A DNA stretch of 64,000 bases from Promethearchaeati archaeon SRVP18_Atabeyarchaeia-1 (GTDB taxonomy: Archaea > Asgardarchaeota > Atabeyarchaeia > Atabeyarchaeales > Atabeyarchaeaceae), in contig CP147779.1 in the NCBI GenBank assembly GCA_037308085.1, forward strand, positions 1,440,001 through 1,504,000, given 5' to 3'. Of the stretch, positions 24,609-61,329 are shown piece after piece; within the stretch, counting starts at the first letter, position 1, and each line of letters starts with the position of its first letter. Position numbers and translations under genes: made by a program. The notes under the pieces were generated by a model. It was given only the letters and a program-made list of their open reading frames with translations, was not told the origin of the DNA and searched no databases.

Positions 24609-25010
24609 GGGTTTCCCACATTTCCTATTTTCTATCCAACCTGAATCCCAACTGGACTGCCGCGGAGACAGTCAATCGACACATTGTTCCCCCAGCAGTT
24701 CCTCAATTGTTCTTCGCGGGTACTCGATAGTCTTCAAATAGAGATACTCGAACACAGAATATAATAGGCTATTGTCTGAGCCAATTGCCGACCCGCTTGA
24801 AGCGGCGATTCTCGCAAATCTGGTTGCAGGCGGCCCCACTTTGGCATCAGGTAGCCCAAGATCACATTCCCTGTGGCCAATTATCACAATTCTGTCGCAG
24901 GGAAGCCCACGCCCTTCACGGGTGGGAGGAGCTGCAGTGGCGGCAGAGTCTAAGGGCAAAATGGGTGTCAGATGGTCTGTTTGAATGCTTCTGCCATGAA
25001 TAGTTCTTTG

Positions 25011-25281
25011 GGCCCTGGGGCGAGACCGCGCGGGGTGGCGCCCCCCGATGCGAAGCCTGAGTCTCTGTTTCCCAGGGCGGATCGTGGTCTCCGAGCACGG
25101 AGACGCGAAGCGTAACCCACCACGCCTGGCGAGGTGAGCGGGCTGGAAAAGCGCGGCGCGCGAAGGCCCAGGAGTCGCAACTTCCGTAACTGGCTTTCCG
25201 GAACCACCGACCCGGCGACGGGCGGACGCAGGGAAAACGAAACGGAAAGCCCACCGGCTCAAAGCCGTGGGAAGAGGTTAC
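25011..25281 (+). ncRNA. Orphan structured element ending in an IS200/IS605 right end (omegaRNA-like RNA or non-autonomous element)
   Basis: GC-rich run of hairpins with A-rich linkers. Ends AAAG-CCCACCGGCT-caa-AGCCGTGGG-aagagg-TTAC. The terminal GGTTAC is complementary to upstream GTAACC (25112-25117). Confidence 0.6.
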
Positions 25282-25293
25282 TTCTTACCTACG

Positions 25294-28224
25294 CTAAGGT
25301 GCGCTCCTTCGAAGTGCTTCGCTTGCTTGGAGATCAACCCGCGAATCCCTGGTTGCCTCCCCTTGCATCTCTTCGGCATCTACCACTAGAACCTTTTTCA
25401 GGAATTGCCCGGTGTATGATTGAGGAACACGCGCGATTTCTTCTGGTGTTCCTTGTGCGATTATTCTTCCCCCGTTCTCCTGCCCTCCTTCTGGGCCAAG
25501 GTCGATTACTAGGTCTGCTGTTTTTATCACATCTAGGTTGTGCTCAATTACGATCACCGTGTTGCCTGCGTCCGTAAGCCTGCTCAATACCTCCAGAAGC
25601 TTATGTATGTCTGCGAAGTGAAGACCAGTGGTGGGCTCGTCAAGCATGTAGAGAGTTTTTCCCGTAGCCCTCCTGCAGAGTTCGGTAGCCAGTTTTACGC
25701 GTTGAGCTTCGCCACCCGATAGTGTCGTCGCAGGTTGCCCCAGCTTGATGTAGCCTAGCCCGACATCGCATATCGTCTGCAGGATTGCCTTGACATGGGG
25801 TATGTTCTCGAAGAACGCGACCGCCTCATCTATCGTCATTGAAAGGATATCAGCGATGTTCTTTTCCTTGTATGTGATCTCAAGAGTCTCCCTGTTGTAC
25901 CGATTGCCTTTGCAGACCTCGCACGGAACATAGACGTCAGGTAGGAACTGCATCTCGAGCCTGATTATGCCATCTCCTTTGCATGCCTCACATCTGCCAC
26001 CGCTTACATTGAAGCTGAACCTTCCAGGTTTGTACCCCCTGGCCCTAGCTTCTTGAAGCTTCGAGAATAGATCCCTGATGAAAGTGAAGACGCCGGTGTA
26101 CGTCGCTGGGTTTGATCGCGGAGTCCTGCCAATGGGCGACTGGTCTATCATGACGGCCTTGTCGATGTTCTGAATTCCTTCGATTCTATCGTGAGCGCCT
26201 GGTTTCTCCTTGGCTCCGTGCAGCGTTCGGGCAAGGGCCCTATAGAGTATGTCGTCTAGAAGTGTGCTCTTCCCCGAGCCTGAGACACCGGTGATGCAGA
26301 TTAATAGCCCTAAGGGTATCTTCACGTCGATATTCTTCAGATTGTTCTCTCGAGCACCTCTTACAGTGATATACTTCCCATTTCCGGGTCTCCGCGAGCT
26401 CGGCACCGGTATCTTCAGCTTTCCGCTTAGATACTGACCAGTTATTGATTTCTCACACTTCGCGACTTCCTCAACGGTGCCAGACGATACGAGATACCCA
26501 CCATGCGCCCCTGCGCCTGGTCCGAGATCGACAACCCAGTCTGCCGCCCTTATTGTCTGCTCATCATGTTCAACGATTATGACTGTGTTTCCTAGGTTTC
26601 TCAGTCTCTTCAGAGTTTCAATCATCCGCCTGAGATCCCTCTGGTGTAGGCCAATAGATGGCTCGTCGAGTATATACAGAACCCCAACCAGACTCGTTCC
26701 GATTTGGGTTGCAAGCTGGGTTCGCTGTGCTTCCCCACCTGACAGTGTGCTTGTCGTCCTGTCCAAGGTTAGGTAATCGAGCCCCACATCCATCAAGAAC
26801 CCTAAGCGGCTCTTAATCTCCTTCAGGACCTGGTGGGCTATGAGTTGTTCTTTCTCAGTGAGTTTAAGAGCGTCGAAGAACTTGAGCGACTGAGACACGG
26901 ACATCTTCGTCATTTCAGCCAATGATTTTTCTGAGATCTTCACAGCCAGACTCTCTGGGCGCAGGCGGTCGCCGTTACATGCCGGACACCTCTTGACAGA
27001 CATGAACTTCTGGTACCAAGCACGCATTTCCTCGGACTTTGTTTCCACGAATCTGCGTTCCAGGTTGTTTATGACTCCCCTTGTGGGGCGTTCATGTTCA
27101 TAGAGTACCTTTTTATTCTCGTCCTCGTATCGGAACTTGATCTTCTCTTCGCCCGACCCATATAAGATCACGTGAAGCTGCTTGGCTGTCAAATCCTTCA
27201 ATGGTGTGTCCAATGAGAAGCCGTAGTGGTCTGCCAAGGACTTCATCGACTGCATCCACCAAGAATCAATGTTCTTGCTCATCGGGACTATTCCGCCTTC
27301 CGCGATCGACTTGGTCTTGTCGGGGATGACCAACTCGGGGTCGATATTCATTTTTACACCGAGCCCACTGCATTCCCTGCAAGCACCGAAGGGAGAGTTG
27401 AATGAGAAGTTCCTTGGGTTGAGCTCACCGTAGCTCACTCCGCAGTCAGGGCACGAGAGCTGTTCGCTGTAGAGCTGCTCGTCTCCGCCTTCCTTCCCAT
27501 CCTCCGCTGTTCTTATGATGACTAGTCCCTCGCTGAGTTTGAGGGCAGTCTGGACCGAGTCAGCTATCCTCCCCCTTGTCTCATCCTTGACTGAAAGCCT
27601 GTCAACAATCGCTTCGATCGTGTGCTTCTTCTTCTTGTCAACGAATCCGACTTCTTCCACCTCTACGTTCCGGCCATCTAGCCGGATCCTGACAAACCCT
27701 TGCTTTCTCAGTTTCTCCAGAATTTCTTTGTGCTCACCTTTTCTCGCTCTAACGACAGGAGCCAAGATCTGAATCCTTGATCCTGACCTCAGCTTCATGA
27801 CTTGATCGACAATTTGGTCAAGGGTTTGCCTCTTTATCTCTTTTCCACATTTGTAGCAATGAGGTATGCCGATCCTCGCAAAAAGCAACCTCAAGTAATC
27901 ATGAATCTCGGTAACGGTTGCTACCGTGGAGCGAGGGTTTCTGCTTGCGGTCCTCTGCTCAATGCAAATTGCAGGTGACAACCCCTCAATATAGTCGACA
28001 TCAGGCTTGCTCATCTGCTCGAGAAACTGTCTGGCATAGGCTGAGAGCGACTCTATGTACCTTCTCTGACCTTCAGCGTAGAGCGTGTCGAACGCCAGCG
28101 AAGACTTGCCGCTTCCGCTCACACCAGTTATGACGACCAGCTTGTCTCTCGGAATTTCAACGTCGATGTTCTTAAGGTTGTTCTGTCTCGCTCCCTTGAC
28201 CACAATCAGACTAGCGTTTCCCAT
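25294..28224 (-). CDS. uvrA: Excinuclease ABC subunit A
   Basis: Two GVSGSGKS Walker A motifs, LSGGEAQR signatures, zinc fingers, [13 protein letters not shown]. Confidence 0.98.
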
Positions 28225-59542: not shown

Positions 59543-59720
59543 TCGTTCTACGTGCTTGACGACCGTTGTCCGAAACTTACCCGTTTAGGGCGCCGCCCAA
59601 ACGGCGTTCGGTTCCTGCTTCATCGGCGGGCACCTGCCACGCGGCATGAACCTCCCGCCTCTCGCAGGCGTTTAGCGTCTCCGCCCAACTGGCGGCGACG
59701 AATGCTAAGTTTAAAGCGGC
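59543..59720 (-). ncRNA. Predicted TnpB omegaRNA (scaffold over tnpB 3' end plus ~20-nt flank guide)
   Basis: Hairpins such as CCGTTTGGGCGGCGCCCTAAACGG just before the right end. Predicted guide TCGTCAAGCACGTAGAACGA. 5' boundary approximate. Confidence 0.65.
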
Positions 59721-60773
59721 GTTGAGGTCGCGGTCAGCCTCAAAGCCGCAACGTTCACACCTGAAGGTTCTCTCGGAGAGCGGCATCTCATCCTTCACTG
59801 CTCCGCAGTTGGAGCACCGCTTCGTGGATGGGAAGAACGGGTCTGCTGCGACCACCACGCTCCCATACCACTTCGCCTTATACTTCAGCTGGCGGAGGAA
59901 CTCTCCGATTCCAGCGTCCGCAATCTGCTTCGCCAGGCAATGGTTCTTCATCAGCCCAGCCACGTTCAGGCTCTCCACGCCGACAACTGACTTGGTTCTC
60001 GCCAGCATCGCCGTGGCTTTGTGCTGGGCGTCCCTGCGGATGCAGGCGGTCCTGAACTCGCACCGAGCCAGACGTGACTGGGCATCCGCCCAGTTTCTGC
60101 TGCCCTTCACCTTCCTAGAAAGTGATCTTTGGAGCCGCTTCTTTTTCCCCTCATAGTAGAGCAGCGCTCTCGGATTCTCAACGGTGGTTCCGTCGCTGAT
60201 CGTGGCGAGCTTTGGTATGCCCATGTCGATCCCCACAGTCGGACCGACGTTTACTGGAACTTCAATTTCCTCATCTACCTGAACACTCACAAACCAGCGC
60301 CCCGCCTTTTCAGAGACCGCCGCAGACAGAATGTGAACTCCGTCAGTTGGTAGGTAGCCTTTCTCCTTGAGCCGAACCCTGCCGATTCGGGGCAACTGAA
60401 TTGAATTGCGGGCAACTGTAATGGAACCCGTGAGCCTGAAACCGCCGACTCCACGCCTCCTGCTCCTGAACTTCGGGTATCGGCTCCTCCCCTCGAAGAA
60501 GTTTCTGAACGCCCTATCCAAGTCGCGGAGGGCTTCCTGCGGGGCGCACTTCGAAACCTCGTACATCCACGGGAAGGTCGCGCGCTTTAGCGCATTCAAC
60601 TGCCGGTGCAGCTCGATTGCGTTCGAGGACTTTCCAGTCTTCTCGTATTCCTCCTTCCGCCGGGCAAGCCCCCAGTTGTAGGCAAACCTAGCTACGCCAG
60701 CAGACTTGAGGAGGAGCGTCTTCTGGACGTTGTTAGGGTCTAGCTCCGTCTTGTAAGCACGGTCAACCAGCAT
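59577..60773 (-). CDS. tnpB: RNA-guided endonuclease TnpB
   Basis: RFAYNWGL, RuvC-I GIDMG, RuvC-II VESL, CSNC/CERC zinc finger, RuvC-III DRDLNAA. Confidence 0.95.
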   Translation of the reverse strand: MLVDRAYKTELDPNNVQKTLLLKSAGVARFAYNWGLARRKEEYEKTGKSSNAIELHRQLNALKRATFPWMYEVSKCAPQEALRDLDRAFRNFFEGRSRYPKFRSRRRGVGGFRLTGSITVARNSIQLPRIGRVRLKEKGYLPTDGVHILSAAVSEKAGRWFVSVQVDEEIEVPVNVGPTVGIDMGIPKLATISDGTTVENPRALLYYEGKKKRLQRSLSRKVKGSRNWADAQSRLARCEFRTACIRRDAQHKATAMLARTKSVVGVESLNVAGLMKNHCLAKQIADAGIGEFLRQLKYKAKWYGSVVVAADPFFPSTKRCSNCGAVKDEMPLSERTFRCERCGFEADRDLNAALNLAFVAASWAETLNACERREVHAAWQVPADEAGTERRLGGALNG

Positions 60774-61329
60774 CTTTAGTAGCCTCCATTGCTCTCATAG
60801 CCCTATTCTTCGCTGCTCTCTTCCCATACAGTCCGGCGCAGAAGCTAGTTAGGACATCGATCATATCCGTTACTAGATCGTCCTTGCATTCAATTTCATT
60901 GGCTATCTCTGCTGTCCGATTGGCCGCTTTTAATGCGGCTATGATGTAACCCCATCCAAACCGTGCCAACCTGTCACGGTGTTCAACCACGATAGTGGAG
61001 ACGGAGGGATTTTCTAGAAGTTTGATGAGCCTCTTTCTGTTACCATTTAGCCCCGATCCAATCTCAGAGACCTCCTGAACCACATGGAGTCCCTTTGCGG
61101 TGGCATATTCACGTAGCCTTTGGAGTTGCCGTTCCAAGTCTTCTTTCTGATCTGATGAAGATACTCTGGCATATAGAGCCACGTTGTTGGTAGTTGTTGG
61201 AAGTTCATGTATGAGAATTGTTCCAGTTGGGAGCGGTTGCGTCGGGCATGGAAACTGCCCTGAACGATAGAGACGATAGGCAGTCTTGTAGTCCAGACCA
61301 TTCTTCCTTGCCCAATCTGCCAGCTTCAT
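60763..61329 (-). CDS. tnpA: IS607 serine recombinase/transposase
   Basis: N-terminal HTH (KLADWAR..G..YKTAYR), YARVSS, EIGSG, EHRDRLAR, LYGKR. Confidence 0.95.
   Translation of the reverse strand: MKLADWARKNGLDYKTAYRLYRSGQFPCPTQPLPTGTILIHELPTTTNNVALYARVSSSDQKEDLERQLQRLREYATAKGLHVVQEVSEIGSGLNGNRKRLIKLLENPSVSTIVVEHRDRLARFGWGYIIAALKAANRTAEIANEIECKDDLVTDMIDVLTSFCAGLYGKRAAKNRAMRAMEATKDAG

Follow-up and report, generated by a model that had tools for sequence, protein, structure and literature searches.

The window analysed here is a stretch of 64,000 nucleotides from the Asgard archaeon Promethearchaeati archaeon SRVP18_Atabeyarchaeia-1 (contig CP147779.1, positions 1,440,001 to 1,504,000 of the forward strand). 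Its source chromosome, a single contig of 2.81 Mb, is called G000 below. As judged from the sequence, window positions 24888-25281 are a complete 394-bp non-autonomous IS200/IS605-type element, similar to the palindrome-associated transposable elements (PATEs) and without a protein gene. A GC-rich island of hairpins, with 63-67% GC against about 50% in the surrounding DNA, forms the 3' two-thirds of the element. The open reading frame (ORF) of uvrA occupies 25294-28224 on the minus strand, so that the bases 3' of 25281 run antisense over its stop codon (25294-25296).

All features of the element are read on the plus strand. The left flank ends in TCAC (24884-24887), the putative target motif or transposon-associated motif (TAM), and the element starts immediately 3' of it. 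The left end (24888-24945), which is kept in seven G000 copies and in the copy of genome G002, consists of an 18-nt leader whose last bases are a DNA-guide-like GAAG (24902-24905), an imperfect hairpin CCCACGCCC..GGGTGGG (24906-24926) and the conserved AGGAGCTGC. According to the alignment of copies it is followed by a variable spacer (24946-24979), in which a conserved CAGATGG comes after extra bases; this copy has about 18-27 extra spacer bases between left end and promoter (24946-24987). Next comes a TATA-like box, TTTGAATG (24980-24987), conserved in position in all copies, reading TTTAAATA or TTTAAGTA in most of the others and lying 22 nt 5' of the G run that opens the RNA; from archaeal promoter geometry it would act as a promoter. 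The structured RNA body of about 270 nt extends from 25010 to 25281. At the right end, a DNA-guide-like AAAG (25246-25249) precedes an imperfect hairpin CCCAC-C-GGCT caa AGCC-GTGGG (CCCACCGGCT..AGCCGTGGG, 25250-25271), after which comes AAGAGGTTAC; the last bases of the element are the terminal cleavage motif TTAC (25278-25281). The predicted guide is the adjoining flank TTCTTACCTACGCTAAGGTG (25282-25301), antisense to the uvrA stop codon. The locus had been described earlier from the letters of the window and a list of its ORFs (the sequence-only reading) as an orphan omegaRNA-like island with the right end of an IS200/IS605 element. The right end is real, the GC contrast is as described, all listed hairpins and motifs are present within 25012-25281 and the proposed guide does overlap the stop codon of uvrA; the term orphan does not hold, since a left end (24888, hairpin 24906-24926) and a TATA-like box are also present.

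The boundaries follow from the comparison of copies, whose homology starts at 24888 and ends exactly at the C of TTAC (25281), with unrelated flanks beyond. T(C/T)AC stands directly to the left of all seven full-length G000 copies and of the G002 copy (left-flank ends ATCAC, TTCAC, TTCAC, TTTAC, TTTAC, TTCAC and ATCAC in G000, TTCAC in G002). The terminal TTAC is found in six of nine copies, and the others show CTAC, TTAA or a lost end. Subterminal imperfect hairpins are present at both ends on the same strand, are conserved among the copies and are each preceded by an NAAG motif. Neither a target duplication nor flank repeats were found in the flanks of the copies. The element is assigned to the IS200/IS605 family by the combination of two subterminal hairpins on one strand, a constant tetranucleotide directly before the insertion point, another at the end of the element, and the lack of a duplication. 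Read by eye, most IS200/IS605 ends across G000 fit a scheme in which a cleavage or target motif T-N-A-C goes with N'-A-A-G 5' of the hairpin, N and N' being complementary. The pairs seen are TCAC/GAAG, TTAC/AAAG and TGAC/CAAG, which suggests that one base pair sets the target choice of these ends.

A search of the whole genome found seven full-length copies and one 5'-truncated copy in G000, with 74-97% identity. Neither tnpA nor tnpB adjoins any of the eight; the neighbouring genes include uvrA, a Memo-like gene and genes for an isochorismatase and a subunit of NiFe hydrogenase. ORFs inside the element had no Pfam match, and blastx of the elements against all TnpB ORFs found no TnpB coding remnant within them. 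The 3' flanks, i.e., the would-be guides, differ in every copy, and those of the eight copies have no second match anywhere in G000, a pattern consistent with homing and not with the targeting of loci elsewhere. Degenerate copies occur: c4 has lost its TTAC, c7 ends in TTAA and c8 is the 5'-truncated one. Metagenome contigs from four runs diverge at 24884 and 25281, where flanks of other copies take over; none of them skips the element, the contigs breaking at the repeat with no joint across it. A look for RNA sequencing runs that cover the locus returned none. Orthologous intergenic DNA of G001 and G002 is without the element, but it is too diverged for the exact empty site to be aligned. Two minimal derivatives of about 160 bp (G000:C1:1306467-1306624 and 1319871-1320035) consist of left end, A/T box and right-end hairpin only, without the RNA body. 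Two further, more diverged subfamilies of the RNA element (G000:C1:2412925-2413095 and 428635-428764) were found with a covariance model, R2, which is introduced below; one ends in GGACGTCAC, the other in GGTGAT with a matching AUCACC pseudoknot partner.

Helices of the RNA body were placed by hand from recurring local folds and then checked by pair counts. They comprise P1 (25012-25019, GCCCTGGG, with 25071-25078, CCCAGGGC), P1b (25022-26/25061-65), P2 (GTCTCCG-agca-CGGAGAC, 25087-93/25098-104), P4 (25118-36), P5 (25142-57), P6 (25171-85), P7 (25194-200/25243-49) and P8 (25207-25), which carries a GCGA loop in CCCG-gcga-CGGG (25211-25222). The folding energy of the single sequence is no better than that of shuffled sequences (z = -1.27 on the plus and -1.26 on the minus strand), so that the case for the hairpins rests on the comparison of copies. 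Within the close family, six pairs of P1, P1b and P2 show double changes, a number matched or exceeded by 3 of 500 shuffles. For the 3' domain, 17 sequences from five subfamilies, in an alignment fitted to the model, show double changes in 24 of 38 pairs, with 91.5% of cells paired; 0 of 500 shuffles reach the observed values, and slid controls give 5-8 pairs. The right-end hairpin (helix 7) covaries across subfamilies, and among the covarying stems are two, P7 and P8, that do not belong to the transposase hairpins. GGCGAC, the motif conserved best, represents a GCGA (GNRA) loop on the plus strand, and several G-U pairs also form on this strand; both fit the plus strand as the RNA strand. The structure that RNAalifold returned for eight close copies is long-range and disrupts the right-end hairpin; it was set aside. 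A long-range GGGCC/GGCCC closing stem of the minimum-energy fold was rejected, being not kept in copies c3, c6 and c7. A tRNA/tmRNA scan was negative. Searches against Rfam gave no match at the gathering score over the whole window and only chance-level matches at E<=10 over 24700-25500. The known families thus left unmatched include SRP and RNase P RNA, HEARO (IscB RNA), group I and II introns and ribozymes.

The last six bases of the element, GGTTAC (25276-25281), which include the terminal TTAC, pair with GTAACC at 25112-25117. Across the family the terminal six bases pair with a hexamer 170-218 nt upstream, and both sides covary in seven of nine subfamilies. The pairs are GGUUAC/GUAACC in this copy and one G069 copy, GGUCAC/GUGACC in the other G069 copies, CGUCAC/GUGACG in G001, UGUCAC/GUGGCA in the g13 genomes, UGUCAC/GUGACA in G031, AGUCAC/GUGGCU in G019 and GGUGAU/AUCACC in G000 at 428635-428764. 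A perfect match of the two hexamers is seen in 22 of 34 elements, compared with 155 of 910 cross-controls in which tails were placed on bodies of other subfamilies. The omegaRNA in the complex of ISDra2 TnpB forms a pseudoknot between positions -5 to -3 and positions -103 to -105, and all Cas12 guide RNAs are described as sharing it (PMC10097598). A covarying pseudoknot formed by the six bases adjoining the flank is a hallmark of TnpB/Cas12 guide RNAs.

The element extends beyond G000. The sister genome, Candidatus Atabeyarchaeum deiterrae (CP147780), holds one full copy, whose left junction reads TTCAC followed by AATTCTG and whose right end is GGTTAC. A first exact pattern matched this sister genome only, and nothing in viral or metagenome contigs; a second pattern matched two metagenome contigs, which carry further members. 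Exact-pattern scans of viral contigs gave no match. Two covariance models were used. Model R1, built on the 3' 177 nt, found in G000 the known copies and right-end relatives only, together with weaker relatives in two other Asgard genomes. Model R2, built on 17 sequences, found the RNA family in 14 of 151 Asgard genomes, with a patchy distribution, e.g., in one of six genomes of one genus. G069, G011 and the two metagenome contigs share the same plan of left hairpin, A/T box, RNA of about 270-330 nt, right hairpin and terminal ..GGTCAC, except that the A/T box is not evident in the G069 copies. The neighbours of these relatives are housekeeping genes. Outside G000, none of the strong matches whose neighbours were examined overlaps or directly follows tnpB, and no contig of G011 or G069 holds both an RNA match and a TnpB domain match. 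On the metagenome contig Ga0315282_10002294 (positions 700-2560) the RNA element lies downstream of a frameshifted tnpB whose 3' region ends in ..GCCGCTCAC; the element's own left end and A/T box separate the RNA from this gene, and the arrangement may have arisen by tandem insertion behind the TCAC at the right end of another element. TnpB genes are present in G000 and in all four RNA-bearing genomes checked (G001, G002, G011 and G069). Three ORFs with an RRXRR domain, IscB/IsrB-like, occur in G000 (G000:C1:774713-775186, 793465-793992 and 817276-817548), and five more in G011.

The left end, spacer and A/T box of the element are homologous to DNA upstream of tnpB genes of G000 (nhmmer E 1e-10 to 5e-7), with homologues at chromosome positions 1948250, 1960031, 2541095, 2423702 and 1965885. 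TCAC also ends the flank of tnpB elements with the homologous left end. In tnpB genes that share this left end, the same A/T box (CTTAAATAC) lies about 29 nt 5' of the ATG, which would be the place expected for the archaeal TATA box of tnpB. The right ends of the tnpB elements of G000 carry a related hairpin, CCCACAAGCTTCAGCGGTGGG. With left end and promoter homologous and the right hairpin related, the element looks like a tnpB insertion sequence (IS) whose promoter now drives an RNA. The closest comparison is with the tnpB-only IS of G000 (1948250-1949590, 1958690-1960031, 2541095-2542360 and 308680-310020), which share with it the left-end hairpin, GAAG, spacer and TATA box, the TCAC target and a related right-end hairpin CCCAC..GTGGG. 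Their own RNA, read by eye, also ends in a six-base pseudoknot, GUCAGU/ACUGAC. They differ by the presence of a tnpB gene of 394-421 aa and by a scaffold of only about 125 nt that ends in TAACTGAC and whose likeness to the RNA body of the element is marginal, resting chiefly on the motif GGUGA(A/G)..GGG..GAAA.

A Pfam search of G000 gave 42 TnpB-domain matches above the Pfam cut-off and three genes for Y1 TnpA (Y1_Tnp), possible suppliers in trans. A right end 85% identical to that of the element follows a Y1 tnpA gene (G000 1955202-1955769, gene 1955413-1955769), which makes the TnpA encoded at 1955413-1955769 a candidate mobiliser. In the surrounding unit, G000:C1:1955202-1957003, tnpA and tnpB diverge from a shared promoter region that is palindromic. 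On the tnpA side this unit ends in a homologue of the right end of the element, on the tnpA-sense strand; on the tnpB side it ends in an ordinary right end read on the opposite strand. The unit, of which there is one copy only, thus appears to be bounded by two right ends facing outward, and no left end could be recognised in it. Within the window, 59577-61329 on the minus strand holds a serine resolvase gene (60763-61329) followed by a gene for a 398-aa TnpB (59577-60773) with helix-turn-helix, OrfB_IS605 and zinc ribbon domains. The adjoining resolvase bears out the earlier assignment of this TnpB, at 59.6 kb, to the IS607 type.

Elements of this general kind are known. PATEs 'often encode omegaRNAs' on which TnpB acts in trans (Meers et al. 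2023, PMC10055086), and omegaRNA-encoding PATEs being already in the literature, the kind of element is not new. The element described here resembles PATEs in having both IS200/IS605-type ends, no ORF, many copies and a probable dependence on TnpA (and TnpB) in trans, as well as a right-end RNA reading into the flank, which is here predicted from the layout. It differs from them by its 270-330-nt RNA, by a putative TATA-type promoter of its own, fused next to the left end, and by an RNA-only form whose conservation in several Asgard families is accompanied by covariation; a parent with tnpB and the same scaffold was not found. With the omegaRNA of ISDra2 TnpB, also called right-element RNA or reRNA (Karvelis 2021, PMC8612924; Nakagawa 2023, PMC10097598), it shares the right-end position, the strand directed toward the flank, the right-end hairpin inside the scaffold, the pseudoknot of pre-guide bases with a far upstream segment, and a predicted guide taken from the flank, beside a TAM identical with the target motif of the transposon. 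Unlike that RNA, it neither overlaps nor follows a tnpB ORF, and its scaffold has about double the length of the 116-nt one of ISDra2; sequence homology between the two is not detectable. Two papers on Atabeyarchaeia make no mention of IS200/IS605 elements, TnpB or such RNAs. What appears to be new is the large scaffold, the fused left-end promoter, the RNA-only form persisting across Asgard families and the absence of a tnpB-bearing parent in the genomes searched.

Taken together, the element is probably a protein-less mobile element that has both IS200/IS605 ends and a conserved TnpB-type guide-like RNA and that borrows both TnpA and TnpB in trans, a reading held with moderate confidence. 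Transcription would start near 25010, about 22 nt after the A/T box and at the foot of P1. The RNA would read through the right end, and about 16-20 bases of flank would become the guide; right-end RNAs of TnpB use about 16 nt of flank as guide (PMC8612924). A TnpB encoded by another insertion sequence would bind the scaffold, the best candidates being the TCAC-targeting family with the homologous left end (G000 1948311-1949576, 1958705-1959970 and 2541172-2542356). A Y1 TnpA encoded elsewhere would move the element as single-stranded DNA. Its precise excision would restore TCAC joined directly to TTCTTACC; the TnpB supplied in trans would then cut the empty site (TYAC plus flank), and repair would restore the element. 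The observations of the sequence-only reading are thus confirmed and its interpretation is supported with corrections, the element being longer leftward, repeated and two-ended. It had proposed a trans-acting guide RNA or a non-autonomous element: a repeated, two-ended, protein-less element is what was found, but homology of the RNA body to tnpB-linked omegaRNA is weak. Multiple scaffold copies with different 3' flanks, expected under that proposal, do exist, but none lies behind tnpB. Its statement that no tnpB or Y1 gene is adjacent extends from this copy to all eight and to the Asgard relatives whose neighbours were examined, bar the one tandem case with its own left end, and the GGTTAC/GTAACC pairing that it had suggested is borne out by covariation across subfamilies, as are its hairpins by compensatory changes both within the family and across subfamilies.

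Several results weigh against the use of this RNA by a TnpB. No relative of the scaffold directly behind tnpB was found in G000, in 150 other Asgard genomes or among the metagenome matches. Comparison of the RNA body with tnpB 3' regions was marginal, both in local alignment (z = 3, 3 of 300 shuffles as good) and in nhmmer (E = 0.06). The covariance model matched two tnpB 3' regions at E = 0.03-0.06, mostly over the right-end hairpin and with many broken pairs; a tnpB of G073 was matched at E = 3e-4, mainly over the right-end hairpin. With 270-330 nt, the scaffold has roughly double the size of those TnpB omegaRNAs that have been characterised. The alignment behind the 3'-domain covariation, having been fitted to the model, favours structure, the effect being still large. 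The A/T box is degenerate in this copy (TTTGAATG), and with this weakened box and the longer spacer the copy may be less transcribed than its sisters. The missing tnpB-linked relative, the lack of significant homology of the body to tnpB 3' regions and a size far above that of known TnpB omegaRNAs would also suit a mobile protein-less IS200/IS605 element whose RNA serves another, unlinked effector, an antisense or regulatory role, or transposition or retention by TnpA; so would the transcript of this copy, which would run antisense into the 3' end of uvrA. Such a role is nevertheless considered unlikely. The terminal covarying pseudoknot is a TnpB/Cas12 guide-RNA hallmark, left end and promoter derive from tnpB elements, TnpB genes are present in all RNA-bearing genomes checked, and the flanks, which differ among the copies, offer no common antisense target.

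Origins outside the TnpB-type elements were weighed as well. In favour of an IscB/IsrB-type element, IscB omegaRNAs are large (200-300 nt), and RRXRR genes are present in G000 (three) and G011 (five). IscB-type RNAs carry their guide at the 5' end, and the polarity of the element is wrong for this, with an internal promoter-like box, a left-to-right RNA strand (G-U pairs, GNRA loop) and a 3' pseudoknot. Furthermore, G002 and G069 carry the RNA without an RRXRR match, RRXRR being found in only two of the four RNA-bearing genomes, no copy adjoins an RRXRR gene and Rfam gave no HEARO match, which leaves an IscB/IsrB-type omegaRNA element highly improbable. A decaying, functionless miniature inverted-repeat transposable element (MITE), with hairpins that merely reflect recent copying and GC-rich sequence, would account for a single-sequence fold no better than shuffles on either strand, for the degenerate copies c4, c7 and c8 and for the weakened TATA box of this copy. 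It would not account for compensatory changes that keep the stems both inside the family and between subfamilies of deep divergence from several Asgard families; P7, P8 and the pseudoknot are not TnpA hairpins, so that constraint from transposition at the DNA level does not explain them, and this origin is judged quite improbable. A GC-rich island of about 280 nt in an archaeal genome of 50% GC might also suggest a housekeeping structured RNA such as signal recognition particle (SRP) RNA or RNase P RNA, the check named in the earlier reading. No Rfam match to either, or to any family, was obtained at the gathering score or, above chance level, at E<=10, and eight copies per genome with transposon ends and a patchy occurrence in 14 of 151 Asgard genomes are equally foreign to such an RNA; the Rfam result, copy number and distribution exclude SRP and RNase P RNA, and the probability left to a housekeeping RNA is negligible.

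For the TnpB-type, protein-less element preferred here, a further step can be suggested only tentatively. The family may represent a long-lived mobile lineage consisting of guide RNA only, whose enlarged scaffold diversified across Asgard archaea without a linked nuclease, either as a hyperparasite or by feeding an unlinked, possibly domesticated TnpB-like protein; this is possible, though we would rather doubt it than assert it. As a hyperparasite, if that is true, it would take both TnpA and the homing nuclease TnpB from other insertion sequences. The RNA family provides natural TnpB-type scaffolds with mapped helices and a covariation-supported pseudoknot, and pairing one of them with a TnpB of G000 would directly test scaffold-nuclease specificity. 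If no TnpB uses the RNA, it would be a conserved mobile RNA of another role, the more surprising outcome. Use of the RNA in trans, should it occur, would mean that guide and nuclease are mobile modules separate from each other in the prokaryotes most closely related to eukaryotes, and that an RNA gene of 0.4 kb could spread and defend its insertion sites with proteins encoded elsewhere.

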